Of a stretch of DNA of 64,000 nt, positions 2,567 through 26,269 are shown in pieces (the first letter of the stretch is position 1; each line of letters starts with the position of its first letter). The notes beneath the pieces are model-generated. The model did not search any database. It had not been told where the DNA came from and worked only from the letters and a program-made list of their open reading frames with translations. This stretch comes from Candidatus Limnocylindria bacterium (GTDB lineage: Bacteria > Chloroflexota > Limnocylindria > QHBO01): assembly GCA_046717345.1 (NCBI GenBank), contig JBKJVN010000134.1, forward strand, positions 3,070-67,069. The letters run 5' to 3'. Made by a program: the position numbers and the translations under genes.

Positions 2567-2674
2567 GCGGGTGCCCCGACCGTGGGCACGGCGGCCGGAT
2601 CGGCCAGCGGCTCACGGAGGCGGATCAGCGCCGAGTCGTTCACCGGCGCATGGTAATCGGCGCCGACTTGGCAG

Positions 2675-3757
2675 ATGATCAGTGGGACTGGTCCGTATGC
2701 TCTCGTCAATGGGCGGTATCTCATAGCCAGTCCATCCCGTCCTCGCGGACGACGCCTCGCCGTCGGTCTGCTGGGGCCATTGATCAGCGCCGCGGCGATC
2801 GTGATCGTCCTGCAGTCGGTGGACATCGGGCAGACGGCTGAGGCGCTCGCTGATACCCAGTTACTGGTCCTCGCGCCTTGCCTTGTGTTGGTGGCCGCCG
2901 GGATCGCCTTGCGGGCATTGCGCTGGCAACGACTTGTGGTCCCAATCGCCGATCAAACACCGCCGGTGCGCCGCATCGCGCCGATCGTCTTGATCGGGTA
3001 TCTCGCGAACGCGGTCCTCCCCGCTCGTCTCGGCGAGCCGATCCGCGCGTACCTCTTAGCACGCCGCGAGAGCCTGAACGCATTCGAGGTCTTGGGGACC
3101 GTGCTCCTCGAGCGAATCCTTGACGTCGCGGTCCTCGCCGTGATGGCGTTCCTCGCGTCATTGGCCCTCGGCGCGCCGCCGTGGGTCGTGCAGCTCACTG
3201 GGGTCGCAGCGGCCGGCGGATTCCTCATCATCGGTGTGCTGACGCTGGGAGGCCTGCGGACGGTGCTGCGCTTCCTCCACCGATTAGCCGACCATGGCCG
3301 TTTCGCGGCCGCCAGGATGATCCTCACGAGGTTGGACCAGGTCGCCCAGGGATTCGGCGGGCGGTCCCAGCGCCTCCCGATTGCGGAAGCAGCTGGCCTC
3401 ACCGTCGTCATCTGGCTCGTGGATACAACGGTCTGCTGGCTCGCGGCCCGGAGCATTGGTTCGGACATAAGCATTGCCGCCGCGCTGCTCATCATCGGGG
3501 TCGGGGCTCTTGGGACTTCCATTCCATCGGCCCCCGGCGCCATCGGCACCTTCGAGCTCGCCGCATCTGCTGCGGCACGCGCCGTGGGCCTGGCGGCACC
3601 TGCCGCGCTGAGCCTCGCGATCGTGGTCCACGCCACCACGCTGCTCCCGGTGGCGCTGGCGGGTGCGGCTGCGATGCTCGCGATGGGCTTGGGCAGCCTC
3701 TCCGACCTTGCGGGGGCCGCGAGGAATAGCGTGGAGCCCATGAACGGCGAACGGTAG
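2675..3757 (+). CDS. Lysylphosphatidylglycerol-synthase-TM-like (MprF flippase-like domain) integral membrane protein
   Basis: 360 aa with about 8 TM helices. It has an Arg-rich N-terminus then LLGPLISAAAIVIVLQSVD.., and a conserved ..GYLANAVLPARLGEPIRAYLL.. block typical of the PF03706-type flippase-like domain. It is divergent from the GT2 gene. The exact start is uncertain. Confidence 0.6.
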   Translation: MISGTGPYALVNGRYLIASPSRPRGRRLAVGLLGPLISAAAIVIVLQSVDIGQTAEALADTQLLVLAPCLVLVAAGIALRALRWQRLVVPIADQTPPVRRIAPIVLIGYLANAVLPARLGEPIRAYLLARRESLNAFEVLGTVLLERILDVAVLAVMAFLASLALGAPPWVVQLTGVAAAGGFLIIGVLTLGGLRTVLRFLHRLADHGRFAAARMILTRLDQVAQGFGGRSQRLPIAEAAGLTVVIWLVDTTVCWLAARSIGSDISIAAALLIIGVGALGTSIPSAPGAIGTFELAASAAARAVGLAAPAALSLAIVVHATTLLPVALAGAAAMLAMGLGSLSDLAGAARNSVEPMNGER

Positions 3758-3795
3758 AAGGTGAGGCTCCTTCCGGGGCTGGCGCGACGACGCTG

Positions 3796-4138
3796 ATGTC
3801 GGCGATCGCTGATATCGTCATCGGCGGCCATCCGGCCTACTCGGTCACCGGTTCGGCGGGCAGCGGCTACGTCATCGACAGCGATGGACCGGGCGCCACG
3901 TTCGTAGTGGCGGGGACTCGAAGAGCTGCCCTCCGGCGAAATCTACGAGCTGTGGCTCCTCGACGCTGCTGAGATACCGCTGGCGGTGGGGACCATCGAG
4001 GTCGCCGATCCCGAGCTGGCGGTGGTCGCGCTTGAGCAGGATCTGTCCGGCTTCGCGCTGTTCGCGGTGACCGTCGAGGCGAAGCGGGTTGATGCCCCGA
4101 CCGGGGAGCCCGTGATGGCCGGCTCGATCGGCAGCTAG
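3796..4138 (+). pseudogene. Frameshifted remnant of an anti-sigma-K factor RskA-type C-terminal domain. The N-terminal anti-sigma/TM part is absent.
   Basis: Frame 1 reads ...HPAYSVTGSAGSGYVIDSDGPGATFVVAG, then runs into a stop. Frame 2 continues LEELPSGEIYELWLLDAAEIPLAVGTIEVADPELAVVALEQDLSGFALFAVTVEAKRVDAPTGEPVMAGSIGS to TAG at 4136-4138. The joined reading matches the RskA C-terminal domain pattern (..TVVV..LP..G.TYQLWLI...). Confidence 0.4.
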
Positions 4139-4150
4139 TCGTCGATGCGG

Positions 4151-4243
4151 TTAGGGATTCTGTCGTCGACGAAACCAGATGGCCACGGCGCCCCCGAGCA
4201 CCGCGATGACGATGACGGCGATGATGATCTGCGTTGTGTCCAT
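4151..4243 (-). CDS. Possible 30-aa single-TM small protein (MDTTQIIIAVIVIAVLGGAVAIWFRRRQNP)
   Basis: ATG is preceded by AGAGGACGAC (GAGGA Shine-Dalgarno about 6 nt upstream). The hydrophobic core is followed by RRR. No homology claim. Confidence 0.25.
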   Translation of the reverse strand: MDTTQIIIAVIVIAVLGGAVAIWFRRRQNP

Positions 4244-4323
4244 GTCGTCCTCTGTCTATTCGATTAGGCCCGGGTGCCACAGCCTGGCGGCAAGTATGCG
4301 GCGACGACGAGGCGCAATGGGCC

Positions 4324-4389
4324 ATTTCGTGCGTGAATGTGTGGCGTGCCCGAGAGGACTCGAACCTCCGACCTTTAGGTCCGCAACCT
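4324..4389. repeat. Left copy of a 66-bp direct repeat (attL/attR-type). It duplicates the 3' half of tRNA-Arg plus 17 bp of its downstream flank.
   Basis: tttcgtgcgtgaatgTgtggcgtgcccgagaggactcgaacctccgacctttaggtccgcaaccta here, against the same string with one mismatch at 14303-14368. Identity stops inside the anticodon-loop region of the tRNA. Confidence 0.75.
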
Positions 4390-4499
4390 AGTAGCCACAG
4401 TCCCGGGCCATCCCGATGCGTCCCGTTCTGCCCTCGTTCGAGCGTGAATCGGGGGTCCGGTCGGGCCAAACGTCCCGGTCCGTCCCGGCATGTAACCGG

Positions 4500-4522
4500 T
4501 AATCCGTGAGCATTCTGTGAGC
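4500..4522. repeat. 23-bp direct repeat TAATCCGTGAGCATTCTGTGAGC (tandem GTGAGC hexamers spaced 11 bp). Second copy at 14236-14258. Putative integrase/Xis arm-type sites.
   Basis: Exact 23-nt identity between 4500-4522 and 14236-14258. Both lie just inside the att repeats. Confidence 0.4.
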
Positions 4523-4524
4523 GT

Positions 4525-4992
4525 TCAGAGCCGACTGTCTGCAATCACGTCAGCAAGCTTGTCTCGGGGGATCGGGGAGCAATGGGCTTTGCCTTCCGCG
4601 TCCCACCAGCACGCTTCACGGATCGGGTTCTGGCGGTGGTACACCGCGATCTCGTCCGAGACGAATGTGGTCCAGGCTTCCTGGCCTTCCTCGAGGGTCG
4701 CGCGATCGGCGTCACCGCCTGCGTTACCACCTCGGAGTGGTCGATTCCTATCGCCCGCTAGACCGAATGCTTCAATCCGAATTCGATTGCGGCGGCATTT
4801 CACCCACATACGCAGCCACAGGGCGTCCGGTCGCTGCAACTCGCCGAACTCCTTGCGAAGCCGGACTGTCGTGCAGCGAATTTCCGCCAGCCGTCGCCCG
4901 CGAACCCATCCACGCCAGCCGAACAGGGCTCCGATTGCGGCGAACAGAAGGGCGCCACCCGCCAGGATGATCTGACCTTCTTGTTGGGTCAT
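4525..4992 (-). CDS. Hypothetical membrane-anchored protein (N-terminal TM helix, basic region, possible bacterial PH-like domain)
   Basis: 155 aa. MTQQEGQIILAGGALLFAAIGALFGWRGW... First gene at the distal end of the island. Confidence 0.45.
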   Translation of the reverse strand: MTQQEGQIILAGGALLFAAIGALFGWRGWVRGRRLAEIRCTTVRLRKEFGELQRPDALWLRMWVKCRRNRIRIEAFGLAGDRNRPLRGGNAGGDADRATLEEGQEAWTTFVSDEIAVYHRQNPIREACWWDAEGKAHCSPIPRDKLADVIADSRL

Positions 4993-5061
4993 GGCTCGGG
5001 AAGCGTAACCCCCACCGGAGGGTGAGATTCCGGCGGGGGTGTGAAGGCCAGGCGGGGCGGC

Positions 5062-5502
5062 TTACTGCGCCGTTACCAGCCCGCCTAACTGCGCGGTCAC
5101 GGTCGTGGCGAGATCCTCGGTCGGACCAATCGGTGCGCTGGCCAGCTCGCTCTTCACCCGGTCCAAGTCTTGGAGGTTTGGCAGGCGGCGCCCCCGCATG
5201 GCCTCCGACAGGGCCTTCGTGAACTCATCGTCGTCCCGCACGGGCCAGTCCTCGGACACCCGCACCCGCACCGCGTCAAGCCAAGAGGTGAAGTCCCGGA
5301 CCGCCCAAACGCCGGACCCGATCTCGGGATCACTCCAGGGCTCGCGTTGCCAATGCCACAGGATGCCCCCCATGGCCTCTGGTGGGGCGAGTTTCTGCTG
5401 TGGGTTGGCGGTGACGGTCAGCGGCGCGACCTTCACCTTCACCGACCCTTTGGCGTCTTCTGCCAACGGAGCCGGCTTGCCTCGGAGAGCAGGGGTGCTC
5501 AT
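5062..5502 (-). CDS. Hypothetical protein (island cargo)
   Basis: 146 aa beginning MSTPALRGKPAP. Preceded by the GGAGGCGCT-ATG-AGCACC start cassette shared with the ORF at 6660-6848. Confidence 0.45.
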   Translation of the reverse strand: MSTPALRGKPAPLAEDAKGSVKVKVAPLTVTANPQQKLAPPEAMGGILWHWQREPWSDPEIGSGVWAVRDFTSWLDAVRVRVSEDWPVRDDDEFTKALSEAMRGRRLPNLQDLDRVKSELASAPIGPTEDLATTVTAQLGGLVTAQ

Positions 5503-5774
5503 AGCGCCTCCAGCATCCGCCGCTCGGCCAGCTCGTCGGCCAGGGCAGCCTCAAGTTGGTCGGCAATCTGCGGAGCCAGCCGCGCGGCCACCACGTCGAC
5601 GGCGGCCTCGTACCAGTTGGCCGCCCCTTCTGGCAGCCCCGCGTTGTACTCGAACCGCCCGAAGCTGCTCTTGATGCCGTCGACGAGATCCTTCATCGCT
5701 TCAGCGTCCCGTGAGAGCCCGCTGATGATCGGCGTTGTGGTGCTCATGGCACCTCCCAAACTGATGGCCGCCAC
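5499..5774 (-). CDS. Hypothetical small protein (island cargo)
   Basis: 91 aa, MSTTTPIISGLSRDAEAMKDL... Preceded by GGAGGTGCC. Its stop overlaps the next gene start (ATGA). Confidence 0.45.
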   Translation of the reverse strand: MAAISLGGAMSTTTPIISGLSRDAEAMKDLVDGIKSSFGRFEYNAGLPEGAANWYEAAVDVVAARLAPQIADQLEAALADELAERRMLEAL

Positions 5775-5879
5775 CGTGGGCTTAGCACGATGACGGCCAC
5801 AAACGAAACGACCGCTAAGCCCGGTCAGGGGCAGCGTAACACTGCATTAGCCCCGCGCCACTCTTTCGCGTGCGAAGCG

Positions 5880-6260
5880 TCAGACGGTCACACCAGGTAT
5901 GAGGCCAGCGACGGCGCGGTCGTGGAAGTCCCGAATCTGGTCGCGGAGGCGCTTTGCACGCCTCAACGTCCCGACGTCAATGGTGTGTGCAGGAACGTAC
6001 CGCGCTCGGCGCGACATTCCTTGAAGGCTCAAGTAGAAACGGGCGATCGCCGGGAACTCACGGTCAAGTGCGGCTTCGAGCCTCATGTGGTCGAGGGCCT
6101 CGGTGTCAATTCCGCGCCTCGCCAGCAGAGCGCTAGCGTAGTGAAGTGCCTCGTAGAACGTGACGGTGACGGCCCAGTCGAAGTGGCCAGCGTCCTCAAG
6201 GACCTTGGCGACTCTTTCATTCGCCTCAGCTCGAGCGACGTGCTCAGCCGGGCTCCCCAC
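5880..6260 (-). CDS. HEPN-domain-like protein (candidate toxin of a HEPN/partner pair)
   Basis: 126 aa. The helix AVTVTFYEALHYASALLARRG resembles the HEPN core helix. C-terminal RLRDQIRDFH fits an R-x(4-6)-H motif. GTG start overlaps the stop of the upstream ORF by 1 nt. Confidence 0.4.
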   Translation of the reverse strand: MGSPAEHVARAEANERVAKVLEDAGHFDWAVTVTFYEALHYASALLARRGIDTEALDHMRLEAALDREFPAIARFYLSLQGMSRRARYVPAHTIDVGTLRRAKRLRDQIRDFHDRAVAGLIPGVTV

Positions 6261-6577
6261 TACCGAAAGCTGTAGACCGAGGCTTCCGGAGGCACCCTAA
6301 AAGTGCCCGCATCTGAGGGGGTCACACAGAGAAGGTCGATCGCCGAATCTGGGAATTCGCGCCTGACCTCTAGTAGGCGCCCGAAGGCCACCTCTTCGGA
6401 GTCGAGAAACTCGTCGGGCGATCCCTCGATGGCCAACACACCCTTGGTGCCTGAAGCGGAATTCGTCAGCGCTAGACCTACCGCCCCTGGGACGGTCGAA
6501 AGCGTCGCGGAGAGCCGCTGCGGAATGGTGCTCTTGTCCGCTGGCGCCGCTAGATAGTCAAGGAGCGTCATAGCCAC
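6260..6577 (-). CDS. Hypothetical protein, possible cognate partner (antitoxin/MNT-like, degenerate) of the HEPN-like gene
   Basis: 105 aa. It contains ...DSAIDLLCV..., weakly reminiscent of the minimal nucleotidyltransferase D-x-D strand, but there is no canonical GS motif. It sits immediately upstream of the HEPN-like ORF and is translationally coupled to it. Confidence 0.35.
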   Translation of the reverse strand: MAMTLLDYLAAPADKSTIPQRLSATLSTVPGAVGLALTNSASGTKGVLAIEGSPDEFLDSEEVAFGRLLEVRREFPDSAIDLLCVTPSDAGTFRVPPEASVYSFR

Positions 6578-6632
6578 GAGTAGTGTCCCAAGTCGTGGTT
6601 GCGAAGCCTCCTAGGTGGTCCGGGCTACCTAT

Positions 6633-6650
6633 CTAGTACCTAAGTACTAG
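6633..6650. promoter_or_regulatory. AT-rich perfect inverted repeat CTAGTAC-CTAA-GTACTAG upstream of the HEPN-pair operon (candidate operator)
   Basis: 7-bp arms with a 4-bp spacer, in a locally AT-rich stretch (ctatctagtacctaagtactaggtctgtcaac) of a roughly 70% GC genome. It lies between the stop of ORF 6660-6848 and the start of ORF 6260-6577. Confidence 0.3.
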
Positions 6651-6659
6651 GTCTGTCAA

Positions 6660-6848
6660 CTAGCGATGCGGGCGAAAAGGACCGTCGTGGCCGGCGTGAC
6701 GACCCGCCGGCTGCTCGTGTACGCGGGCAAGGCCCCGCGCCGGTCGCCCGCCCTTACCCAGCGCGCCAGAGGCGTTCTGGAGGCCGTAGATGAGCTGCTC
6801 GCGTGCCTCGGGAACCGTTAGGACCCGCGGGGGTGTAGTGGTGCTCAT
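6660..6848 (-). CDS. Small hypothetical protein (62 aa), possibly antitoxin-like
   Basis: MSTTTPPRVLTVPEAREQLIYGLQ... GGAGG lies 4 nt before the ATG. The first 9 codons and the SD are near-identical to the starts of two other island ORFs. Confidence 0.35.
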   Translation of the reverse strand: MSTTTPPRVLTVPEAREQLIYGLQNASGALGKGGRPARGLARVHEQPAGRHAGHDGPFRPHR

Positions 6849-6961
6849 AGCGCCTCCAGGTCGGCGCAGATCGGCCTCCCGGAGAGGTAGCGAACGTCTG
6901 GGTATGGTACGCAGTCCGTCGAGCGTCTTCCCCCTTTGGCGGGCCTGCCCTATCCTCGATC

Positions 6962-7534
6962 GTGATGTCCGTTCGAAGGCCGTGGCTGCGGGCCCTGCTC
7001 GGTGCCGCGTGCGTGATCGCCGCGTGTACGCCGACCCCGGCGCCGGCGACATCCGTGCCTGCGACCGAGAGTCCCGCGGCGGAGGTCGGCAATCTGCCCA
7101 CGGGCTGCGAGCCGATCGACCTGCGGTCTCCCGCCGGGGAACCCGTCGATCTCAACGGGATCTGGGTCCAGGATGACAAAGAAGGCCGTCGACCATCGAA
7201 ATGGTGGATCCGGACCCTCGGGGATTGCATCTGGGGCACCGGCATCTTCGATGAGTACACGGAAGTGGTTATCGCCGCCGACCCGGGCCACGTTCAGACG
7301 TTCCACGGAACGGTCGCCAACGATTTCACAATCGACAGCGACATCGTCTTGGTAGGCCCACGATTTGTGTACTTAGAATTGCCGATTTTCGCCGAGGTCC
7401 GACTGCTCATCGAGTTCGACCCGGCAGGCGAGATCATCCTCCGTGAGGACCGCATCCCCGGCGTCCAGGGCCCGCGGTGCCTGGATCCGCTTAGTTTCTG
7501 CCCCGCGCCGCTCCTCCTCCGACCCAGCCGCTGA
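6962..7534 (+). CDS. Predicted secreted lipoprotein of unknown function
   Basis: 190 aa. Signal peptide MMSVRRPWLRALLGAACVIAAC with lipobox IAA-C, then a Pro/Thr-rich linker and a globular domain. It is divergent from the small ORF at 6848. Confidence 0.55.
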   Translation: MMSVRRPWLRALLGAACVIAACTPTPAPATSVPATESPAAEVGNLPTGCEPIDLRSPAGEPVDLNGIWVQDDKEGRRPSKWWIRTLGDCIWGTGIFDEYTEVVIAADPGHVQTFHGTVANDFTIDSDIVLVGPRFVYLELPIFAEVRLLIEFDPAGEIILREDRIPGVQGPRCLDPLSFCPAPLLLRPSR

Positions 7535-7838
7535 CGTCTGCCGCGCTGCCCGGCGGAGAGCGCGTCAACGTACCGGGTCGGGTGGCGGTCGAACGTCCAA
7601 ACGCTGCCCTGGAACTCCACGTCACCCGTGGGCCACGACGTGATCGGCCCCGGGGGCGGCCAGGGCTGCGGTGGCGTCCCCGTAAGCGGTCCAGGAACCC
7701 CATCGCCCCCTCCCCGGCGTGGTTGGTCGGGGGACACGATACGCCGCTGTGCTGCTCGGGCTGATCCACGCGGCGTCGCCGAGGCGCCCGCCGCCTACTA
7801 GCCGACCGACTAGGAGGCCCGGCGGGGATAGCCGCGAT

Positions 7839-8363
7839 TCATCGCCTGACCTTGCCGTCGACGATCTTGTCGTCGCTGTAGCTGTACGGACGGGATTGGT
7901 CCTCCGGCACGCGCACCTCCGTCGAAGCGCGGGCGACAGACTGCCCGGACGGGAACTCGTTGCGCTGGACCCGGAGCGCCACTTCAGCCTGCTTCGCCTC
8001 GTCCAGGAGCGTGACCGCCGCGGCATGTTGCTGCCGGAGCTCCTGCAGAAGGCCGATGTTCGGCTTGCCGCCGACGACGATGCCGCCGGCAAGGAAACGC
8101 CGGTCAGCGCCAGCAGCGGCCTTGTCGATTTCCTCCGCGAGCCCCCGCTTTTTCAATGCCACCCGCTGTACCAGCAGCGCGGCGTCCTCGATGGCCGCGT
8201 CGAAGCGCGCCAGCATGTTTCGGGTGGCCTCTGACGGGCGACGGACGCCGGTCAGACGGCGCTCGGCGACCCTCCATTCCCACGCGGTCCATGCGGGGTT
8301 CAGGAAGCCATCAGGGCCGACCTTCGGCGGCTCCTGGTCGGTGATCGTGGTCTGTTCGGTCAC
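7839..8363 (-). CDS. Hypothetical protein (island, downstream of the TerS module)
   Basis: 174 aa. GTG start is preceded by AAGGAGAT. No recognisable motif. Confidence 0.45.
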   Translation of the reverse strand: MTEQTTITDQEPPKVGPDGFLNPAWTAWEWRVAERRLTGVRRPSEATRNMLARFDAAIEDAALLVQRVALKKRGLAEEIDKAAAGADRRFLAGGIVVGGKPNIGLLQELRQQHAAAVTLLDEAKQAEVALRVQRNEFPSGQSVARASTEVRVPEDQSRPYSYSDDKIVDGKVRR

Positions 8364-8380
8364 GGTGATCTCCTTATGGT

Positions 8381-8824
8381 CTACTGGAGGAGCCGGTCGC
8401 CGAGCTGGCGCCGGATTGCGTACAGGTCGTGGCGGTCATTCCCCAGCTCATCGAGCTCGATGGCGTCCGCTGTCATTCCGAGCCTCTTGGCCAGGGCCGC
8501 ATCGAGTTGGAGGCGGCCTGACAGGACGAGCTCACGCAATTTCTGATTGAAGCGGTTGCGCTTGTCGAGCTGCGCGCGGGCCCAGTCCCAGATCTCGCCG
8601 GACTTGACGTCCACGACTTCGCCGAGCCGGTCGGGGCCCATCTTTGTGCCCGGTGGGGTCCAGAGCAGGTCCTCGGGCTCCCAGCTGGCGACCGCGGGGT
8701 GCGGGACCCAGCCGACGACGCTCAGGCCGTCAGGGAGGAGCATCGCGGTTCGGGTGAAGCGGGCCGGGTAGACGCCGCTGACGCTGCGCGGCACGGTCGG
8801 GTCGTATTGAGGTCTGTAAGTCAT
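8381..8824 (-). CDS. Hypothetical protein (island)
   Basis: 147 aa. ATG preceded by AGGAGCACCTG. Confidence 0.45.
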   Translation of the reverse strand: MTYRPQYDPTVPRSVSGVYPARFTRTAMLLPDGLSVVGWVPHPAVASWEPEDLLWTPPGTKMGPDRLGEVVDVKSGEIWDWARAQLDKRNRFNQKLRELVLSGRLQLDAALAKRLGMTADAIELDELGNDRHDLYAIRRQLGDRLLQ

Positions 8825-8833
8825 CAGGTGCTC

Positions 8834-9271
8834 CTAACTCTTGAGGCGACGCGCGAAACGCGACGCGAATCCGACTGCGGCCGCCTCGTCGGCGGCTACA
8901 TCCGCGGTATAGGTGCGGCTTGACGGCCACGCCGTGCCGTAGGCGGCGTGCCAGGCGGCGTGGGCGCATTCGTGGGCCACGGTCTCGGCCAGCGCGGCGC
9001 GGTCCAGGTCGGCGCTGACCCAAATCTCACCTGGCCGCCACGACCGAAACTCCCCGTGGAGTTGCTGGTCATCGCTCCACGCTCGGAGGCTCCACAAAGC
9101 AGGCTTCTCGGCCCGAACGAAGAACTTGACCGTCGGCGTGGCGATGCCCAGCTCCGCAGCGGCCAGGCGCGCGATGTTCTCCGCGTAAATGCGGATCAGG
9201 CTGCCTGGTCCGGTGGGGATTTGGAGGTACTCGATGCGCTTCGTGGCGGTCGGCATGGGATCTTCCTTCAC
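8834..9271 (-). CDS. HExxH zinc-metallopeptidase-like protein (SprT-like / ImmA-like motif)
   Basis: 145 aa with ...LAETVAHECAHAAWHAAYG... (HExxH) near the C-terminus. Confidence 0.5.
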   Translation of the reverse strand: MKEDPMPTATKRIEYLQIPTGPGSLIRIYAENIARLAAAELGIATPTVKFFVRAEKPALWSLRAWSDDQQLHGEFRSWRPGEIWVSADLDRAALAETVAHECAHAAWHAAYGTAWPSSRTYTADVAADEAAAVGFASRFARRLKS

Positions 9272-9627
9272 TTGGTCAGGACGGCGGCCCGCCAGGCCCA
9301 GCGGCCCGGCTCCCGTTCCGTGGCCGCTTCGGCGCGGATGGTGTCGGCCTCAGCCGGCGATAGCTCGCCCGAGTCGATGAGGAACCGCAGCCGCGCGGAG
9401 GCGCGGGAGACGTAGGCGGCGTCTTCGCGGAGGTGGCAATACAGGTCGATGCCCGGCGATTCGGCCAGGTCAGGTCGGGTGGACTCGAAGAGCCACCACG
9501 AGTAGGGCCGTAGGCCGAGCCCGGTGACCATCCACGACGCGATCGCCTCCTGGCGCTGATCGGCCCACTGGCGCGCCTCATTGAGGTCGCGATTCGTCCG
9601 TCGCCGGCTGCGCCTCATCCGTGCCAC
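9268..9627 (-). CDS. Hypothetical protein (island)
   Basis: 119 aa. Overlaps its neighbours by 4 and 13 nt, suggesting operon coupling. Confidence 0.4.
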   Translation of the reverse strand: MARMRRSRRRTNRDLNEARQWADQRQEAIASWMVTGLGLRPYSWWLFESTRPDLAESPGIDLYCHLREDAAYVSRASARLRFLIDSGELSPAEADTIRAEAATEREPGRWAWRAAVLTK

Positions 9628-9971
9628 CTCGACGGTGCGCGGCTGATGGCCGGCGCTTCGAGGTCCAGGCCGAGCTCGCGGAGGGCCCGCATGTGGAGCG
9701 TGGTCGCATCGCGGGCCATCGCGACGGCGGGGTTCGGTTTCAGACCGAATCGGCCGTCGATCAGGATCCCGTACTTGGCGATCGCCGCCTGAGCGGCCCG
9801 GAGACGGTCGAGCTGCTCACACGCCCGCTCGAGGATGGCCAGGTGGTGCGCCTCGAGGGTGTAGTCGGTGGTCACGTCGCGCCACAGGCGTCGAGCCTCA
9901 GTCGAGAGGGTCTTCGGAGCCGGCGGAATGGTCACCGCGACGGGCTGGCGAACCGTTGCGGCTCTACTCAT
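9615..9971 (-). CDS. terS: Phage terminase small subunit, P27 family
   Basis: 118 aa. LSTEARRLWRDV...LEAHHLAILERACEQLDRLRAAQAAIAKYGILIDGRFGLKPNPAVAMARDATTLHMRALRELGLDLEAP matches the P27 TerS pattern (LS.EA...W......L.......L...C.....EA...I...G.....G..K.NP.......A......ELGLTP). Confidence 0.7.
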   Translation of the reverse strand: MSRAATVRQPVAVTIPPAPKTLSTEARRLWRDVTTDYTLEAHHLAILERACEQLDRLRAAQAAIAKYGILIDGRFGLKPNPAVAMARDATTLHMRALRELGLDLEAPAISRAPSRWHG

Positions 9972-10089
9972 GGTCGGTCCGGTGGTACCGATTCAACGGG
10001 CACCACGCATGTTGCGAATGCGGTAGGCCGGGGTGACGGCGCGACCGCCCCGCTGGTGATCCGATGCCGCCTGCCATACAGACCCCTGG

Positions 10090-11460
10090 TCACGCCGGCA
10101 CCCCCTCATCGAATGCCCAGTCCGCAGCCACCCGTTCGGCAACTGGCTCGCTGTGGTCAGGGTCCGTGGCACAGATATCGCAGCGCCAGGCGTCGCCGAC
10201 CTTGCGATGGCTGAGCTGGTGAGCCGAGTAGTCCTGACAGACGACGGTCGGACTTGAGGACACCGCCCGGAGCCCCGTCGCGTGCCCGTTACCGCTCCCC
10301 CCTGCTACGGGCCTTTCACCCGCTACCTTGCTACCGGCACGCTCAGTTTCGTGCTCAGTCGTAGCGGGGTAGCGAGTTAGAGGGGTCTCTGCGGGGGGAG
10401 AGAGGTAGCGGCTGAAGGCGTCGGTGAACTGGTCCGCCGGGTACCCCCGGACGTTGACCCCGTTGACCTTCATCTGCCGGGCACGGATGCGATATGGGCG
10501 AAGCAGATAGGCGAGCCCCTCCGCTTTCAGTGGGCGCCCGTGGCGGTAGTCTTCCGCCCAAGGCCGCTCTTCGAGAGCATGCAGCGCGTCGAGCAGCTCA
10601 GACGTCGGGATCCGTTCCGTCGCCTTCTCCGCGAGGACGTCCCGGATATCCGACAGCACCATGACCGATCGGCTCTCGTCTTCCACTTCGGCCGACCCTG
10701 CGAGAGTCAATGCGGCCTTGCGAGCGCGTGCCGGCCAATCCGCGCCCGCGGCGTCGGCCAGGGCCAGCAGCGGCTCCCAGCTATCGGCGGCGCGGTCATC
10801 GAGTGCATCGGGCACGTCGACCAGCTCGGGGAGGGTCAGGTCTACTAGCGATTCCCACCATTCGCGGACCGCCGTCGCCTCCAGCTCGGCGACACGGAAC
10901 CGGAACCGCTCTAGTGGCTCGTGGCGGGCACGACGCTGGAGGGAGATGACGACGGCCCGATCCTGGATCGTGTCGGGCAAGCGACCGATGCTGGCGACGG
11001 CTTTGGGGCAGTAGCAGTCAAAGCTTTCGACGCGCATCTTCTTTCCGTCGCCAACGACTCGATAGAACGGCACGCCGCGGCGGTACCCGTTATTCAGCAG
11101 ACCGCGGATATCCTCCGAGGCGTCCGATCCGCGCTTGTTGAAGATCGTGTCGGCTTCATCCAGAAGCAGGGTCGGGTGGCGCTCGTCGATGATGCGGAAC
11201 AGCGCGGCCAACGATGCGCCGGCCATCGGAACCGGCCCCCGGACAATCAGGCGCAGAGCCTCCAGGCACCTACTCTTGCCGGACCGTTTCTCGGGCGACT
11301 GAACCAGGAGATAGGCCGTCGTGTCGCCCTGGTCGAACAGCCAGGTATGGCCGACCCACAGCGCGACGGCATCGGCCTGCTCGGCATTAGCGAAGACGAC
11401 ATAACGGCGCAGGAAAGTGGCCGTGGCGTCGAGGGATTGGGCGGCGTCGGATCGAGTCAT
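10090..11460 (-). CDS. DUF3631-family P-loop NTPase (replication/primase-associated protein of actinobacterial integrated elements) with a C-terminal Cys-rich tail
   Basis: 456 aa. The N-terminus MTRSDAAQSLDATATFLRRYVVFANAEQADAVALWVGHTW is the typical DUF3631 start. Walker A is SPEKRSGKSR and Walker B is TLLLDEADT. The C-terminus has CQDY..H..H......C..C motifs. Confidence 0.65.
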   Translation of the reverse strand: MTRSDAAQSLDATATFLRRYVVFANAEQADAVALWVGHTWLFDQGDTTAYLLVQSPEKRSGKSRCLEALRLIVRGPVPMAGASLAALFRIIDERHPTLLLDEADTIFNKRGSDASEDIRGLLNNGYRRGVPFYRVVGDGKKMRVESFDCYCPKAVASIGRLPDTIQDRAVVISLQRRARHEPLERFRFRVAELEATAVREWWESLVDLTLPELVDVPDALDDRAADSWEPLLALADAAGADWPARARKAALTLAGSAEVEDESRSVMVLSDIRDVLAEKATERIPTSELLDALHALEERPWAEDYRHGRPLKAEGLAYLLRPYRIRARQMKVNGVNVRGYPADQFTDAFSRYLSPPAETPLTRYPATTEHETERAGSKVAGERPVAGGSGNGHATGLRAVSSSPTVVCQDYSAHQLSHRKVGDAWRCDICATDPDHSEPVAERVAADWAFDEGVPA

Positions 11461-11846
11461 TCAGGCCACCGGCTCAGAAGCCCTCGTGCCTCCCCGTGAC
11501 GACGATATGCGTCCCGACTTTCGAGCAGCCGAGTTACTCGCCACAGCCAAGCTTCGGCCCTGACGCTCCAGGGTGCGTAGCGGTCGGACGGGACATCGAG
11601 GCCAGCGGCACGGGCGGCCGCTCGAACGTCCTCAATGGCCAGAAACAAACGGCGTCGGGCTCGCGCCTCGGGGTCGGTCACAAGGGCACCCGTTCGCTGC
11701 GGCACCTGGCGGCCAACCGGAGGGCCCAAGCGGCCTCTCGCGGAGCGTCGACGTCGACCGCGGGCGGTATCAACTCGAGGCACCGGGCTCCGCTGGTCAG
11801 ATAGATTTCGGCGCGAAGGCGCTGCCGAGCCGCGTACGCGACCCAC
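11457..11846 (-). CDS. Hypothetical protein (Arg-rich N-terminus; the true start may be internal)
   Basis: ORF fills the gap between the Xis-like gene and the DUF3631 gene. Its stop overlaps the downstream start (ATGA). Confidence 0.3.
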   Translation of the reverse strand: MGRVRGSAAPSRRNLSDQRSPVPRVDTARGRRRRSARGRLGPPVGRQVPQRTGALVTDPEARARRRLFLAIEDVRAAARAAGLDVPSDRYAPWSVRAEAWLWRVTRLLESRDAYRRHGEARGLLSRWPE

Positions 11847-11861
11847 GATTCGCCGCGCGGT

Positions 11862-12134
11862 CTATGCTGCGGGGCGGTGGTCGGTCGTGGTCGTAACACG
11901 ATTCGATCCTTGGGCGCTCGCCTTCAGCGGGGCGGGCGCCCTCTTTGTTTCGGCCTGCGGCTCGTCGGCGAGGAACCGCTCAACGGAGCGGCGCGGCACG
12001 CGAATCGACCGTCCGACCCGGACGCCCCACAATTCGCCTGACTGGACGAGCGCGTAGGCGGCGTTCCGGCCCACGCGAAGCAGCTTCGCCACTTCAGTGA
12101 CGGTCAGAACGTCGGGTGCATCCGCGATGGTCAT
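11862..12134 (-). CDS. xis: Excisionase-family / AlpA-like helix-turn-helix DNA-binding protein
   Basis: 90 aa. LTVTEVAKLLRVGRNAAYALVQSGELWGVRVGRSIRVPRRSVERFL is the classical excisionase-type HTH_17 signature. Confidence 0.65.
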   Translation of the reverse strand: MTIADAPDVLTVTEVAKLLRVGRNAAYALVQSGELWGVRVGRSIRVPRRSVERFLADEPQAETKRAPAPLKASAQGSNRVTTTTDHRPAA

Positions 12135-12396
12135 GCAACGGCCGGTGCCCGTTCTGCCCGCCGTGGCGTTCGACGCTGGGCCACCAGTCCGGTGAGCAGC
12201 CGTCCGTAAGCCACCGCCGGCTCACCATGCGGGACCCGCTCACCATTCTCCCAGCGGAGGATCGTTCCCGGCGAAACGCCCACGCTCTTTGCCACTTCGC
12301 CGAGCGATAGCCCGGCGTTCAGTCGAATCGGCCGAGCTGCTCCCGTTCCGACCAGAGCCCGGACGCGGGCCAGCTCCTGGAGAGTCTCGATGTCCA
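12131..12396 (-). CDS. XRE-family HTH transcriptional regulator (candidate island repressor)
   Basis: IRLNAGLSLGEVAKSVGVSPGTILRWENGERVP is the XRE/Cro HTH. The start was chosen at MDIETLQ (88 aa). A longer ORF extends to 12451. Confidence 0.6.
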
Positions 12397-12423
12397 TGGG
12401 TGGCACACTACCCGATGCGGGCA

Positions 12424-12437
12424 CCTTTGTGCAAAGG
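12424..12437. promoter_or_regulatory. Perfect inverted repeat CCTTTG-TG-CAAAGG in the divergent XRE / int-operon control region (candidate operator)
   Basis: Seen directly in the sequence. A TTGACA hexamer lies at 12492-12497, 30 nt upstream of the ATG at 12527, which may indicate a leaderless promoter. Confidence 0.35.
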
Positions 12438-12526
12438 GTTGGCTTATCCATTGTTTCCGACTAATCGGGAACGTTCTGCTCAGACTATGTATTGACAGAG
12501 CATGCCCGCAGCGTCACCATGCCCCC

Positions 12527-13045
12527 ATGACGCCAGACGGCCCGCCGAACCCAAGCGTAGAAGAGGACTGGGGTACCTGGGAGGATGACACTGGAACGCG
12601 ACGGCCCTACATCCTTCGCTGGCGCTTCGTCGGAGACCGTTTCATGTGCTACTCCGTCGAGTTGCAGTCGACCGAGGACCAACCGATCACCGCGGCCCTG
12701 CTCCGCAAGTTTCCAGTCGGCGAGCTGATGGCTAGCGCCCGGCGCCACCACAAGGATCTCGAGCGGTGGATTGCGGAGTCGATTCCTGAGCAGCGTACTG
12801 AGGCGCTCGAACGTGCTGAGGCCTGGGAGGGGTCCATGGCCGGCCGGTCCGGGCCGAAAGGGTACGGCGCCGCCCACTTCGCGGAGGTGGCGGTCATCTA
12901 TCGGGAAGAGGCAATGCGGGGCAACAAGCCGACCCAGGCGGTTGCCGACCACTTCGTCGTGAGCAAGTCGGCGGCTGCGAAGTGGGTCGCCCGCGCACGC
13001 ACCATGGGCCTGTTGCCCGCGGCGCAGAAAGGGAAGGCCGGATGA
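12527..13045 (+). CDS. Hypothetical protein with a C-terminal HTH. First gene of the rightward int operon.
   Basis: 172 aa. C-terminal ..KPTQAVADHFVVSKSAAAKWVARARTMGLL.. is helix-turn-helix-like. Its stop overlaps the integrase ATG (ATGA). Confidence 0.45.
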   Translation: MTPDGPPNPSVEEDWGTWEDDTGTRRPYILRWRFVGDRFMCYSVELQSTEDQPITAALLRKFPVGELMASARRHHKDLERWIAESIPEQRTEALERAEAWEGSMAGRSGPKGYGAAHFAEVAVIYREEAMRGNKPTQAVADHFVVSKSAAAKWVARARTMGLLPAAQKGKAG

Positions 13046-14238
13046 GACAAGGCCGAGTGTTCCGACGCTGCACAAAGTGCGGCAGCGCCGTCCAGGAGCG
13101 CCACTGCCAGCGATGCGGCTCCGACCGCGCGACGTGGAGCTACATGGTCGATATCGGCCCGTCAGGGGCGACCCGCGACCAGCGCAGCCGGGGCGGCTTC
13201 CCGACGAAGGCTGAGGCGATCGCCGCGATGCACGGGCTCCAGGCGGCAGCCGCATCCGGCAGCTTTGTCGAGCCGTCGCGCCGGACTGTCGCCCACTACC
13301 TAGCCGAGTGGCTCCAGGCCGTCCGGCCGCCACTCGTCCGAGGCGGGACCTGGCGCGGCTACGAGCTCAACGTTCGCCGGCACCTCGTCCCGCGGCTCGG
13401 TGGCGTGCCGCTCCAGCAGCTCACCAGGGCGACGGTGAAGGCCGCCTACCAGGATCTCGCCCTCCATGGCTCCCCTACTGGCCGCCCGCTGAACCCGAAG
13501 ACGGTCCACAACATCCACCTGACGCTGAGAAAGGCGCTCAGGGATGCCGTTGAGGACCGACTCTTGTCACACAACTCGGCGGACGGTGCCCATCGGCTCC
13601 ACGCCGACCGCCCGGAGATGCGGACCTGGACCGCGGAGCAGGTATCAGCCTTCCTGACTGCCGTGGCCGACCGTGACGACTTTGCGCTCTGGCGCCTGGC
13701 AGCCACCACGGGGATGCGGCGCGGGGAGCTGGTCGGCGTGCGTCGAACCGATATCGACCTCGAGGCCGGCACCGTTCAGGTTCAGCAGCAGCGGGTCCGG
13801 GGCATGAGCGGCTACACCTACGGCCCACCGAAGACGGCCCGCGGCCGGCGCTCCATTCCGATTGACTCTGGCACGATCGCAGCCCTGCGCGCCCACCTAC
13901 GCGCCCAGGGCGTCATCCGGCCAGCTTTCGGCCTTGGCTACCAGGATGCCGGCCTCGTGTTCGCGCGGGCCGATGGGACGCCTCTGGATCCGGATTCGGT
14001 AAGCGGGGCGTTCGAGCAGATCGTGCGGCGGCTCGGGCTGCCGGTCATCCGGCTCCACGATCTCAGACACACCCACGCGACGCTCGCGCTCGCGGCGGGC
14101 GTGCATCCGAAGGTGGTACAGGAACGGCTGGGCCACTCCAGCGTGACTATGACCCTGGACCTCTACTCGCATTCGGTGCCTGGCATGCAGGCCGATGCGG
14201 CGGATCGGATCGCGGCCCTGATCGACGCCGCTGGGTAA
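13042..14238 (+). CDS. int: Tyrosine-type site-specific integrase with an N-terminal zinc-ribbon plus an AP2-like arm-binding domain
   Basis: N-terminal CTKCGSAVQERHCQRCG. Catalytic core carries R (GMRRGEL), HDLRHTHAT (HxxR) and a TLDLYSH tyrosine. It ends 82 nt from the intact tRNA-Arg. Confidence 0.85.
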   Translation: MRQGRVFRRCTKCGSAVQERHCQRCGSDRATWSYMVDIGPSGATRDQRSRGGFPTKAEAIAAMHGLQAAAASGSFVEPSRRTVAHYLAEWLQAVRPPLVRGGTWRGYELNVRRHLVPRLGGVPLQQLTRATVKAAYQDLALHGSPTGRPLNPKTVHNIHLTLRKALRDAVEDRLLSHNSADGAHRLHADRPEMRTWTAEQVSAFLTAVADRDDFALWRLAATTGMRRGELVGVRRTDIDLEAGTVQVQQQRVRGMSGYTYGPPKTARGRRSIPIDSGTIAALRAHLRAQGVIRPAFGLGYQDAGLVFARADGTPLDPDSVSGAFEQIVRRLGLPVIRLHDLRHTHATLALAAGVHPKVVQERLGHSSVTMTLDLYSHSVPGMQADAADRIAALIDAAG

Positions 14239-14269
14239 TCCGTGAGCATTCTGTGAGCATTCGGCTCAC
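14236..14269. repeat. Right copy of the 23-bp TAATCCGTGAGCATTCTGTGAGC repeat, plus an inverted GCTCAC hexamer 11 bp further on
   Basis: GTGAGC-attct-GTGAGC-attcg-GCTCAC at helical (11-bp) spacing. It overlaps the int stop codon. Confidence 0.4.
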
Positions 14270-14302
14270 CGGAGACACCGAACCGGCCCCGCCTAGGGCC
14301 GG

Positions 14303-14368
14303 TTTCGTGCGTGAATGGGTGGCGTGCCCGAGAGGACTCGAACCTCCGACCTTTAGGTCCGCAACCTA
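14303..14368. repeat. Right copy of the 66-bp att direct repeat (the 3' half of the intact tRNA-Arg plus flank)
   Basis: See 4324-4389. Confidence 0.75.
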
Positions 14369-14395
14369 ACGCTCTATCCGCTGAGCTACGGGCAC
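14320..14395 (-). tRNA. tRNA-Arg, anticodon read as GCG (G37, encoded CCA)
   Basis: Reverse complement GTGCCCG-TA-GCTC-AGCGGATA-GAGC-G-TTAGG-TTGCGGA-CCTAA-AGGTC-GGAGG-TTCGAGT-CCTCT-CGGGCAC-G-CCA folds as a canonical 76-nt cloverleaf. Confidence 0.8.
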
Positions 14396-14406
14396 CCGCC
14401 GCAAGC

Positions 14407-14498
14407 TGGCGGAGAGGGAGGGATTCGAACCCTCGGAAGAGGAAATCCCCTTCAACGGTTTAGCAAACCGCCGCACTAGGCCACTATGCGACCTCTCC
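14407..14498 (-). tRNA. tRNA-Ser (anticodon GCT), long variable arm, encoded CCA
   Basis: Reverse complement GGAGAGG-TC-GCAT-AGTGGCCTAGT-GCG-G-CGGTT-TGCTAAA-ACCGT-(long arm)-GAGGG-TTCGAAT-CCCTC-CCTCTCC-G-CCA. Confidence 0.8.
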
Positions 14499-14608
14499 GG
14501 AAGCGGCGCCGATGATAGCATCAGCTCCTCTGGAACCGACCTCCGACGGCCGGCCCGTACACGCCTCGCGAACGGCCGCTAACCGCCCCGCAATCGAGAC
14601 ACAGACCT

Positions 14609-15484
14609 GTGACGCGCCTACTCATCATCGGTAATCCCGTACCTGCCAGCCCGGCCGAAGCGGTCCAGCGGGCAGCGCTGCTGGCTGCGGGTCGGGACGT
14701 TGACATCGAGCGCTGGGAGCGGAAGCCGCACCAGCTCAGCGAGGCCCTGGGAGAGGTCGTCCACCCCGAGGTGATGGGAGCCATGATCGGCTCCCCGCAC
14801 AAGGAGAAGGCCGCGTCGCTCATCGGTCTGTTGTCCGACGAAGCCCGCGCCAGCGGCGCGGTCAACGCGGCCGTCAACCAGGACGGACGCCTGCACGGGT
14901 ACAACACCGATGTGGCCGGCGTGCGCGCCGGCCTGGAGTCCATCCTGCCCGAGGGCACCGCCCGGTGGCCGCGCCAGGCGGTGCTGCTGGGTGCCGGTGG
15001 GGGTGCCCGGGCGGTGGTATCGGTCCTGCTCGAGAGCGGGTTTGGCCGGATCGCCGTTTTCAACCGCCATCTGCACCGGGCCGAGGCGGTCGTCGCCCAC
15101 TTCGATCGCGTGTCGCGCGAGACGGACCTCCGGGCCCTGCCCTGGCACGAGACGATCATCGAGGCGGAGCTGTCCAAGGCTCGCCTGTTGGTGAACGCCT
15201 CAGGCGTTGGCGCCGATACCGACGCGAGCCCGATCTCCGCAGCGCTGTTGCCGTATGAGCTGTACGTCCTGGACCTGGTGCTGAACCGGTCCGAGACGCC
15301 GCTCATGCGGGAGGCGGCGGCGCGGGACGGGATTGTCGCCAACGGTCAGGGCTCGTTCCTGGTGGCCCAAGCGGCGGCTTTCCAGCTGTGGACCGGCGAG
15401 GACGCGCCGTCCGACGTGATGCGGACCGCCCTGGCGGACCACCTGGGCCTCCCCGAAGAGGGGCTCGCCGTCGTCGGCGACTGA
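14609..15484 (+). CDS. aroE: Shikimate dehydrogenase
   Basis: 291 aa. NTDVAGV and VLLGAGGGARAV (NADP-binding) blocks. Confidence 0.8.
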   Translation: MTRLLIIGNPVPASPAEAVQRAALLAAGRDVDIERWERKPHQLSEALGEVVHPEVMGAMIGSPHKEKAASLIGLLSDEARASGAVNAAVNQDGRLHGYNTDVAGVRAGLESILPEGTARWPRQAVLLGAGGGARAVVSVLLESGFGRIAVFNRHLHRAEAVVAHFDRVSRETDLRALPWHETIIEAELSKARLLVNASGVGADTDASPISAALLPYELYVLDLVLNRSETPLMREAAARDGIVANGQGSFLVAQAAAFQLWTGEDAPSDVMRTALADHLGLPEEGLAVVGD

Positions 15485-15507
15485 GTCGCTCCGGCGGCCG
15501 GACCGTG

Positions 15508-16089: not shown

Positions 16090-16093
16090 TGAC

Positions 16094-16597: not shown

Positions 16598-16706
16598 TGG
16601 CGGAGGGGATCCAGCCGCAAGAAGGTGCGTTGTCGCACCGCCGAATGCGGCGTGGCGGTTGCCGGTCGCGCGATGCCAGGCGTAGGCTGCCGGGCGGAGG
16701 AGACCA

Positions 16707-26243: not shown

Positions 26244-26269
26244 GACGGTAGGGTCTCCTCAGGCGCGAG

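Follow-up and report, generated by a model that had tools for sequence, protein, structure and literature searches.

A 64,000-nucleotide stretch of contig JBKJVN010000134.1 (hereafter the window) carries an element of about 10 kb inserted at a tRNA-Arg gene, and its gene content suggests that this element is, on balance, probably an integrative, self-replicating satellite of the phage-inducible chromosomal island (PICI) kind, whose own small terminase (TerS) would redirect the cos-type packaging machinery of a helper phage. In evolutionary terms, the element appears to combine the integrase-excisionase-RepAM (int-xis-RepAM) backbone of the pMEA300-type integrative and conjugative elements of actinomycetes (AICEs) and of phiRv2 with a phage packaging module that replaces the FtsK/Spd conjugation module. 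The architecture matches that of PICIs and phiRv2; the differences lie in the host phylum, the combination of RepAM with TerS only, and an orphan partner of TerS.

The element is bounded by a 66-nt direct repeat, whose distal copy lies at 4325–4390 and whose proximal copy (14303–14368) lies inside an intact tRNA-Arg(GCG) gene (14320–14395, minus strand; Rfam tRNA 69 bits), the integration target (attB). The core repeat corresponds to tRNA positions 28–76 plus 17 nt beyond the tRNA 3′ end; the two copies are identical at 65 of 66 positions, do not extend past either edge, and differ only at 4340 (T)/14318 (G), outside the tRNA. A preliminary description of this DNA had proposed an att duplication of the 3′ part of the tRNA-Arg gene, and realignment, the calls of the intact gene at 14320–14395 by ARAGORN and Rfam, and an empty site in a relative (see below) all bore this out; the repeat with its single mismatch stood as described, and the left copy, placed at 4324–4389, had to be moved by one base. 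Between the int stop codon (14238) and the 3′ end of the tRNA lie 81 nt, close to the 82 nt given earlier. Counting one core copy, the element is 9,978 bp long and holds approximately 17 genes. A second pair of repeats, 29 nt long with two GTGAGC units, lies at 4498–4526 in the distal arm and at 14234–14262 in the integrase-proximal arm, where it overlaps the int stop codon (both plus strand). The two copies are 28/29 identical and would flank the core on both sides in the excised circle. Because a 20-mer of this repeat had 0 chance matches in 100 shuffles, the arm repeats are not a chance occurrence, and we infer that they are candidate arm-type integrase binding sites. A 14-nt inverted repeat (14276–14309; 86% complementary, 6-nt loop) straddles the boundary of island and core just 3′ of int and may be the int terminator or a part of attP.

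Searching metagenomes for the shikimate-dehydrogenase-like protein encoded in the flank retrieved contigs of close relatives. In contig L043, the flanks are 93.6% identical to those of the window at the nucleotide level, and the sequences corresponding to window 1–3751 and 4073–4390 join 14297–16073 directly. A three-way alignment resolved the left flank, a single core copy, and the right flank within an intact tRNA-Arg(GCG) gene. L043 is the true empty site (attB), and the joining of the flanks over one repeat copy, which the preliminary description had anticipated in related strains, was thus found. That so similar a relative has nothing at the site implies a recent gain, and it is close to certain that the island is a discrete, recently acquired integrative element. 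Contigs L044, L045, and L047 also lack the island at tRNA-Arg. The same tRNA-Arg gene is occupied in L048 and L053 by another insert of 1.7 kb, bounded by part of the core repeat (insert L048 2126–3847 and L053 3666–5387; partial att core L048 2148–2215 and L053 3688–3755), and is therefore an insertion hotspot; the insert itself is probably a decayed island. In L047, about 5.5 kb of unrelated DNA (477–5955) separates the LPG-synthase gene from the segment homologous to window 3786–4136 and has the appearance of an independent insertion immediately left of the tRNA locus. The anticodon GCG is unusual for a bacterial tRNA-Arg, ACG (read as ICG) being normal, and tRNA-Arg(GCG) is present in all seven related contigs examined (L043–L053). 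A tRNA-Ser(GCT) gene adjoins it (ARAGORN and Rfam).

The host was taken in the preliminary description to belong to Actinomycetota. GreA, UppP, and UDP-GlcNAc 2-epimerase of the window fall into clusters of at least 90% identity, the named members of which are all metagenome-assembled genomes (MAGs) of Candidatus Limnocylindria/Chloroflexota. The four nearest relatives of the TerS, in a scan with one genome per species, are likewise all in Candidatus Limnocylindria/Chloroflexota MAGs, and a contig of Chloroflexi bacterium UBA5189 is syntenic with the window host genes at 23.6–28.3 kb with 70–79% nucleotide identity. By these sequence relationships, which rule out an actinomycetotal host, the host is Candidatus Limnocylindria (Chloroflexota). 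The window proteins had no exact-sequence match in the contig index. One flank of the element encodes UDP-GlcNAc 2-epimerase, a glycosyltransferase, and LPG synthase, and the other thymidine kinase, seryl-tRNA synthetase, class-I lysyl-tRNA synthetase, GreA, UppP, and H+-pyrophosphatase; because both flanks consist of housekeeping genes, the idea of a prophage end running past the region was rejected. The class-I lysyl-tRNA synthetase (19734–21341; PF01921, 3.3e-74) is of the minority type in bacteria.

The gene on which the satellite reading turns encodes the TerS of Terminase_4/P27-like type (9615–9971, minus strand), which matched PF05119 (6.8e-11; 42.9 bits against a cutoff of 24.7) and phrog_83 (2.4e-14). 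All 28 homologues that we found also matched PF05119, and dN/dS values of 0.07–0.41 against six relatives indicate purifying selection. The C-terminal tail of the family has the consensus RPPTRWR (SRWH in the window), in which Trp is invariant and Arg nearly so across unrelated backbones; this conservation fits a partner shared by these proteins. In the gap of 118 bp between the RepAM gene and terS, immediately upstream of the latter, lies a conserved block of some 80 non-coding bp (9972–10050, minus strand). Its motif, CGCGCCGTYACCC...GCGTGGYGYC...TTSRAT...GTAC, is common to contigs L001, L009, L007, and L039 despite differing upstream genes. RNAalifold gave no consensus RNA fold for the block, so we dropped an RNA element in favor of a DNA site, and propose that the block is a packaging (cos/pac) or operon control site. 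Downstream, terS overlaps by 13 nt (9615–9627) with orf119 (9268–9627, minus strand), the orphan partner. The orf119 family comprised 37 clusters in a HMMER scan of 1.84 billion protein representatives, and its gene was found with TerS in 5 of approximately 13 contexts. An AlphaFold2 model from a 31-sequence alignment predicted an all-helical protein, a seven-helix bundle with a predicted local distance difference test score (pLDDT) of 92.7, which had no significant structural neighbor and no Pfam or PDB sequence match. Its position suggests that orf119 is a TerS accessory.

The remaining modules serve integration, regulation, and replication. The tyrosine integrase (12982–14238, plus strand) matched PF00589 (3.5e-23), Phage_int_SAM_3, and phrog_1 (2.8e-74), and weakly Arm-DNA-bind_4; translation probably begins at the ATG at 13042, in an ATGA overlap with the stop codon of orf172 (12527–13045, plus strand), which is co-directional with int and coupled to it. 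The product of orf172, whose G + C content at third codon positions (GC3) is 0.80, had no match in Pfam, PHROG, NCBIfam, PADLOC, or PDB. Staphylococcus aureus pathogenicity islands (SaPIs) carry Stl at the matching position, and we infer from position that orf172 is a candidate master repressor; a related island on contig L129 has a 215-aa open reading frame (ORF) in the same place. A divergent intergenic region of 75 bp (12452–12526), the presumed control region, separates the orf172-int operon from a leftward operon with the order xre, xis, orfA-like, repAM, terS, orf119, HExxH, orf147, and orf174. By eye, an imperfect palindrome, GTTTCCGA-ctaa-TCGGGAAC, was spotted in this region; a promoter and terminator scan found no sigma-70 consensus there, and terminators were at chance level. 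The leftward operon opens with an XRE-family helix-turn-helix (HTH) regulator (12131–12451, minus strand; HTH_3 3.3e-9, HTH_31 1.4e-8, phrog_8), followed by an excisionase/AlpA-like HTH_17 protein (11862–12134, minus strand; PF12728 1.5e-13, phrog_66 'excisionase and transcriptional regulator'), which scored 48.2 bits on TIGR01764 'excise' (cutoff 28.8). Further along, the RepAM-type replication initiator (10090–11460, minus strand; PF12307 [DUF3631] 6.3e-44) has a P-loop N-terminal half, with Walker A 'EKRSGKS' and Walker B 'LLLDEAD' visible in the sequence, and a Cys/His-rich C-terminal tail; it had no match in PHROG and no sequence match in PDB. Profile searches upheld all five of the earlier assignments, namely int, Xis-like HTH, XRE, DUF3631, and P27 TerS.

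The C-terminal tail of RepAM, CQDYSAHQLSHRKVGDAWRCDIC (window 10171–10239, residues approximately 405–433), is 52–55% identical to the N-terminal part of an HNH protein on contig L012 and to the end of the first ORF on contig L123, both of which lie just upstream of a TerS gene. The tail may be a small mobile zinc-ribbon-like module.

Searches with Pfam and PHROG detected no large terminase (TerL), portal, capsid, protease, tail, holin/lysis, or FtsK/SpoIIIE match in the island, and tblastn queries verified by Pfam (TerL, portal, capsid, S78 protease, and tape-measure proteins) had no match in the 64-kb window. Besides integrase and RepAM, the island has no GC3-supported ORF longer than 190 aa. 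The earlier statement that structural, large-terminase, and conjugation genes are missing therefore agrees with these searches, and the contiguous TerL or capsid genes that would have turned the element into a prophage end are absent from the window, whose flanks are housekeeping genes. Virion structural, TerL, and lysis genes, by which a prophage is recognized, were found neither in the island nor in the window.

We compared the element with the five core components of PICIs defined by de Sousa et al. 2023 (PMC10085698). An integrase and a discrete element with att sites are present (PF00589 3.5e-23, 66-bp repeats, empty site in L043), as is the TerS (PF05119, phrog_83). For the regulation module, represented in PICIs by an AlpA, MerR, or Stl homologue, the element has the HTH_17/'excise' protein, of the AlpA/MerR-like HTH class, and the XRE protein, divergent from int and orf172. 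In place of the primase-replicase, the element has RepAM/DUF3631, a functional analogue that is not a Pri-Rep homologue, and no primase domain was found. No capsid-morphogenesis gene was detected by Pfam, PHROGs, or tblastn; such a gene is often absent in Gram-positive PICIs such as SaPIs. None of the components forbidden in PICIs (tail, holin, portal, and head-tail connector) was found. Overall, four of the five core components were counted, although, taken singly, the integrase and TerS are present and neither a primase-replicase homologue nor a capsid gene was found. With 9.98 kb and approximately 17 genes, the element is close to the medians given for PICIs, 9.5 kb and 15 proteins (PMC10085698). 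The assignment to PICI-type satellites made in the preliminary description is thus supported by the architecture (integrase, TerS, size, and no forbidden genes).

Work on SaPIs has established that the TerS of the island redirects packaging by the helper phage. The window element resembles SaPIs such as SaPI1 and SaPIbov1 in that int and a co-directional gene lie on one side of a divergent control region, and a long operon of regulator, xis, replication gene, and then terS lies on the opposite side. The lack of capsid, tail, and lysis genes and a length of the order of 10–15 kb are further common traits (PMC10085698). However, there is no detectable homology beyond the generic int and HTH families: RepAM stands in place of SaPI Pri-Rep, the TerS is of the Terminase_4/P27 type (cos/HNH-associated) whereas that of SaPIs is of the pac type, and no cpmA/B or ppi homologues were found in the window element. 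Capsid-forming PICIs (cfPICIs) are similarly integrative satellites with HK97/cos-type packaging genes (HNH, P27-like TerS), and some relatives of the window element described below encode a capsid protein or protease. Nevertheless, the genes that define cfPICIs (TerL, portal, head-tail adaptor and connector, protease, and capsid; PMC10085698) are all missing from the window element, and no sibling examined encodes TerL or portal.

The replication gene points to AICEs. DUF3631 is RepAM, which initiates replication in AICEs of the pMEA300 group (PMC3218068, PMC2440964). The nearest plasmid match of the window RepAM, at 43% identity, is a DUF3631 protein from a 13.5-kb Streptomyces AICE plasmid, in which the gene order is int, HTH, DUF3631, Prim-Pol, FtsK/SpoIIIE, SpdB, and GntR. 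Immediately upstream of repAM, a 74-aa ORF with a GTG start at 11681 (11457–11681, minus strand) overlaps the repAM start by 4 nt, in the position of pMEA300 OrfA, and coupling of orfA and repAM has been described in pMEA300 (PMC2440964). This ORF is the conserved C-terminal part of a 129-aa ORF, the rest of which is not conserved; because it is conserved upstream of RepAM in contigs L128 (56% identity to a 63-aa ORF directly upstream of RepAM) and L129 (40% identity to the counterpart), we consider it real. The element therefore shares with AICEs a tRNA-gene tyrosine integrase, an excisionase, RepAM/DUF3631 with a small coupled upstream ORF, and an XRE/GntR regulator (PMC2440964, PMC3218068). 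By the AICE definition of Ghinet et al. 2011 (PMC3218068), the integrase and one of the AICE-type replication proteins (RepSA, RepAM, or Prim-Pol), here RepAM, are present (PF00589, PF12307), whereas the FtsK/SpoIIIE-domain Tra is not, as there is no PF01580 match and no ORF large enough. Spd, Nudix, and Kor genes are also lacking, the terS module occupies the place of the transfer genes, and the host lies outside Actinomycetales.

The same backbone is found in phiRv2. te Poele et al. reported that RepAM is 34–41% identical to Rv2655c of phiRv2, a protein encoded upstream of an excisionase and an integrase at a tRNA gene (PMC2440964); among isolated phages, the window RepAM had one match, a hypothetical protein of a Pseudomonas phage (36%), annotated with an 'Rv2655c' note. 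Rv2654c and Rv2653c are an antitoxin and a toxin, Rv2650c is a 'prophage protein' (PMC11302280), and Rv2652c is terminase-like (PMC11378267). Like phiRv2 and phiRv1, the window element is approximately 10 kb long and has att repeats, and phiRv2 resides in a tRNA gene with a tyrosine integrase (PMC3986857). The order of int, excisionase, the RepAM homologue Rv2655c, and terminase-like Rv2652c at the tRNA is also that of the window (PMC2440964, PMC11378267, PMC11302280). This link to phiRv2 comes from Pfam DUF3631, the literature, and one annotation note. We take Rv2651c and Rv2650c to be a protease and a capsid protein, respectively, after the H37Rv annotation. In contrast to phiRv2, the window element has no prohead protease, capsid, or toxin-antitoxin pair of the Rv2653c/54c type, and its host is a member of Chloroflexota instead of Mycobacterium. 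The arrangement in which prohead protease or major capsid genes follow the terminase is seen among the siblings L001, L038, and L039, and two of these, L001 and L038, recall phiRv1 in combining a serine recombinase with a capsid gene. Both phiRv1 and phiRv2 are PICI-like according to SatelliteFinder and Hatfull's group (PMC10085698, PMC10654092); induction of the Mycobacterium candidate PICIs is undemonstrated (PMC10654092), and the cited phiRv papers report no helper phage or mobilization. The earlier remark that elements of this kind are poorly described in Actinomycetota is not supported, as phiRv2, phiRv1, and other Mycobacterium candidate PICIs have been published (PMC10085698, PMC10654092, PMC2440964).

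A wider view is given by approximately 13 small-element contexts, drawn from metagenome contigs and MAGs (several contigs being short), in which the TerS is 43–79% identical to that of the window; none has TerL or portal after TerS in the sequence available. The island of L001–L006 lies in about 8.5 kb between host genes and encodes SSB, a serine recombinase, RepAM (47%), TerS (71%), an orf119 homologue, and a capsid protein, and L038 has a serine recombinase, AAA_25, TerS (74%), an orf119 homologue (57%), and a capsid fragment. In L007/L008, a tyrosine integrase, a D5_N primase, and TerS are followed by homologues of the HExxH protein and orf147. AAA_25, TerS, and an S78 prohead protease are encoded in L039–L042; HTH_17, a 394-aa protein, TerS, an orf119 homologue, and a tyrosine integrase in L125; and a tyrosine integrase, a winged-HTH (wHTH) protein, and TerS in L010. 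TerS precedes a BglII endonuclease in L011. In L012, a serine recombinase is followed by an HNH gene that overlaps TerS, and then by DarT and a macro-domain (DarG-like) protein; HNH with a P27-family TerS is the canonical cos-type pairing, as in HK97-type cos phages. The siblings thus use tyrosine or serine integrases and RepAM, D5_N primase, AAA_25, or wHTH replication genes, and TerS-only islands recur (L010, L012, L125). The only relative confirmed directly upstream of TerL and portal is on the IMG/VR contig L036 and is 39% identical. Two contigs, L123 (958–6963) and L032 (10001–14721), encode TerS followed by protease/capsid and tape-measure/minor-tail proteins, with no TerL or portal; oddly, these partial head-tail sets fit neither a phage nor a classic PICI. 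The L012 island (approximately 4845–16790; Chloroflexi bacterium UBA5189) splits host genes that are adjacent in the window at 26240–26989 and so represents a second occupied/empty pair. Sibling islands clearly carry defense genes (DarTG, BglII, and, in L128, restriction-modification [RM] and PycTM).

If the element is a satellite, its life cycle would run as follows. In the quiescent state, the divergent control region (12452–12526) would hold the leftward operon off, and the infection by, or the induction of, a helper phage would derepress it. The integrase and the HTH_17 excisionase would then excise a circle, with Int using the paired GTGAGC arm repeats that flank the core, and RepAM would amplify the circle. 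The island TerS would bind its cognate site, for which the conserved block upstream of terS is the candidate, and recruit the TerL of the helper and probably its HNH nuclease as well, in the manner of HK97-type cos phages, so that helper capsids would be filled with island DNA in place of helper DNA. In this process, orf119 could act as an accessory of packaging redirection.

Several observations weigh against this interpretation. No helper phage was identified, and the best match of the TerS among isolated phages is only 31% identical (Corynebacterium phage EmiRose). On NCBIfam TIGR01558 (sm_term_P27), the TerS scored 36.8 bits, under the equivalog cutoff of 45.6. No cos site, pac site, or promoter is demonstrated in the island, and neither is an origin; a search for iterons and hairpins near repAM was unconvincing, and the pMEA-type 8-bp repeat hairpin was not seen. 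The island, orf119, close RepAM relatives, and the arm repeat were not found in IMG/VR viral contigs, and the absence of the first three from that collection leaves encapsidation without evidence. Since many contigs used in the comparison are short, the absence of TerL is not proven for all of them, and in L123 a tail-like gene lies beside a TerS of this clade, together with an S49 protease gene. Finally, the RepAM backbone persists without a packaging gene in L128 and L129, whose RepAM proteins are 69–71% identical to that of the window and whose islands lack TerS.

A less probable explanation is that the element is a non-conjugative integrative/replicative island, that is, an AICE-type int-xis-RepAM backbone whose transfer gene was lost or never present. 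Such an island would persist by integration with occasional mobilization in trans, or by vertical inheritance only, and its TerS-like protein would be a DNA-binding regulator or a partition-like factor. In its favor are the order of int, HTH, and DUF3631 genes, which is that of the Streptomyces AICE plasmid and pMEA elements (PMC2440964, PMC3218068), the two TerS-free RepAM islands, the TerS score under the strict P27 cutoff, and the lack of any trace in viral contig collections. Of the two islands, L129 has the layout of the window (int with a co-directional ORF, HTH_17, RepAM). However, Pfam and PHROG both place the TerS among small terminases, and its clade moves among unrelated backbones and stands in siblings beside capsid, prohead protease, or HNH genes, and is thereby linked to capsid packaging, not to regulation. 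Neither FtsK/SpoIIIE nor any other transfer gene is present, and the host belongs to Chloroflexota, whereas Ghinet et al. 2011, whose survey did not cover Chloroflexota, found AICEs only in Actinomycetales among the Actinobacteria examined (PMC3218068). Contig L128 (island 2438–13889; RepAM 69% identical) also encodes a large serine recombinase, a ResIII helicase, an N6_N4 methyltransferase, and weakly matching PycTM (Pycsar effector-like) and HEPN_RiboL-PSP proteins, and is thus a defense-loaded relative of the backbone.

Still less probably, the element is what remains, decaying and now immobile, of a larger one, either a small prophage or a capsid-encoding island like phiRv, from which the capsid and protease genes have been lost. 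After TerS, siblings encode Phage_capsid (L001, L038) or a protease of the S78/S49 type (L039, L123), where the window has small unassigned ORFs; the cargo end (4525–7800) has lower GC3 and several doubtful ORFs; and decayed remnants of 1.7 kb occur at the same tRNA in L048 and L053. On the other hand, only a single difference in 66 positions separates the att repeats, neither arm repeat is damaged, the Int, Xis, RepAM, and TerS proteins are complete and align with their profiles over the whole length, and dN/dS is below 1 for TerS and RepAM. The empty site in the relative with 93.6% identical flanks implies recent gain, and the recurrence of islands with TerS only (L010, L012, L125) also speaks against loss. 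A fourth reading, that of a mainly defensive island in which TerS is a decoy that aborts helper packaging and the island is not transferred, draws on the DarT-Macro (L012), BglII (L011), and RM, PycTM, and HEPN (L128) genes of siblings and on a borderline HEPN protein in the window, but is very improbable, as PADLOC matched none of the 10 unannotated or cargo proteins, the HEPN match is at threshold and its partner has no family match, and pure defense would require neither a replication module nor att and arm sites that are intact.

Should the PICI-kind satellite interpretation hold, phage satellites would extend into Chloroflexota, and a satellite could be built from an AICE/phiRv2-type integration-replication backbone and a terS module, which would link AICEs, the M. 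tuberculosis phiRv elements, and PICIs, usually handled as separate classes. The literature search returned no paper joining Chloroflexi with 'phage satellite' or Limnocylindria with 'prophage'. A broader proposal, which we put forward only tentatively, is that Limnocylindria, an uncultured but widespread class of Chloroflexota, host a guild of satellites in which a satellite-specific P27-like TerS clade, accompanied by the orf119 partner in 5 of about 13 contexts, is swapped among backbones, with the window element as an AICE-satellite bridge and the block upstream of terS as the packaging site. The clean set of attB, attL, and attR, the TerS clade in small TerL-less islands, the candidate packaging site, and the confident predicted structure of orf119 offer handles for work on this system. 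The family of TerS/RepAM islands would also be a vehicle for defense genes in environmental bacteria.

The genes downstream of orf119 are less well defined. The HExxH protein (8834–9271, minus strand), putatively a small zinc-metallopeptidase-like protein, has a HECAH motif, only sub-threshold matches to SprT/M78, and no PDB sequence match; it is 41% identical to a protein that L007/L008 encode two ORFs downstream of TerS. The product of orf147 (8381–8824, minus strand) is 43% identical to that of another L007/L008 ORF downstream of TerS. With homologues found downstream of TerS in a second element (L007), these two genes may be part of the TerS module rather than cargo. The leftward operon ends with orf174 (7839–8363, minus strand; GC3 0.83). 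Neither orf147 nor orf174 had a family match in Pfam, PHROG, PADLOC, or NCBIfam.

The distal region of 3.3 kb contains the cargo. Its anti-phage or helper-interference function, suggested in the preliminary description, has almost no support for this island: PADLOC had no match for the ten proteins, HEPN is barely at its cutoff, and the homologues of HExxH and orf147 lie beside TerS elsewhere. The pair of orf105 and the HEPN-like gene (5880–6577, minus strand; GC3 0.70–0.72) matched HEPN PF05168 at 1.5e-4 (22.4 bits against a cutoff of 22), orf105 itself having no family match; a toxin-antitoxin system is a weak possibility for this pair. The ORFs orf91, orf146, and membrane-anchored orf155 (4525–5774, minus strand) had no match in any library searched, and their GC3 is 0.81–0.82 for two and 0.67 for orf155. 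From its sequence, orf190 (6962–7534, plus strand) encodes a predicted lipoprotein with a lipobox (...IAAC). Paralogues of about 30% identity occur in the chromosomes of the related Limnocylindria contigs L043, L044, and L051, which suggests that orf190 is cargo captured from the host; the L051 paralogue lies directly beside the same tRNA-Arg gene. A nearly identical ribosome-binding site and start, GGAGGYGCYATGAGCACC, occurs at window 5484–5513, 5731–5756, and 6830–6859 (minus strand) in front of orf146, orf91, and a 62-aa ORF at 6660–6848, the N-termini of which read MSTP or MSTTTP; one possibility is that this sequence is a duplicated translation-initiation cassette.

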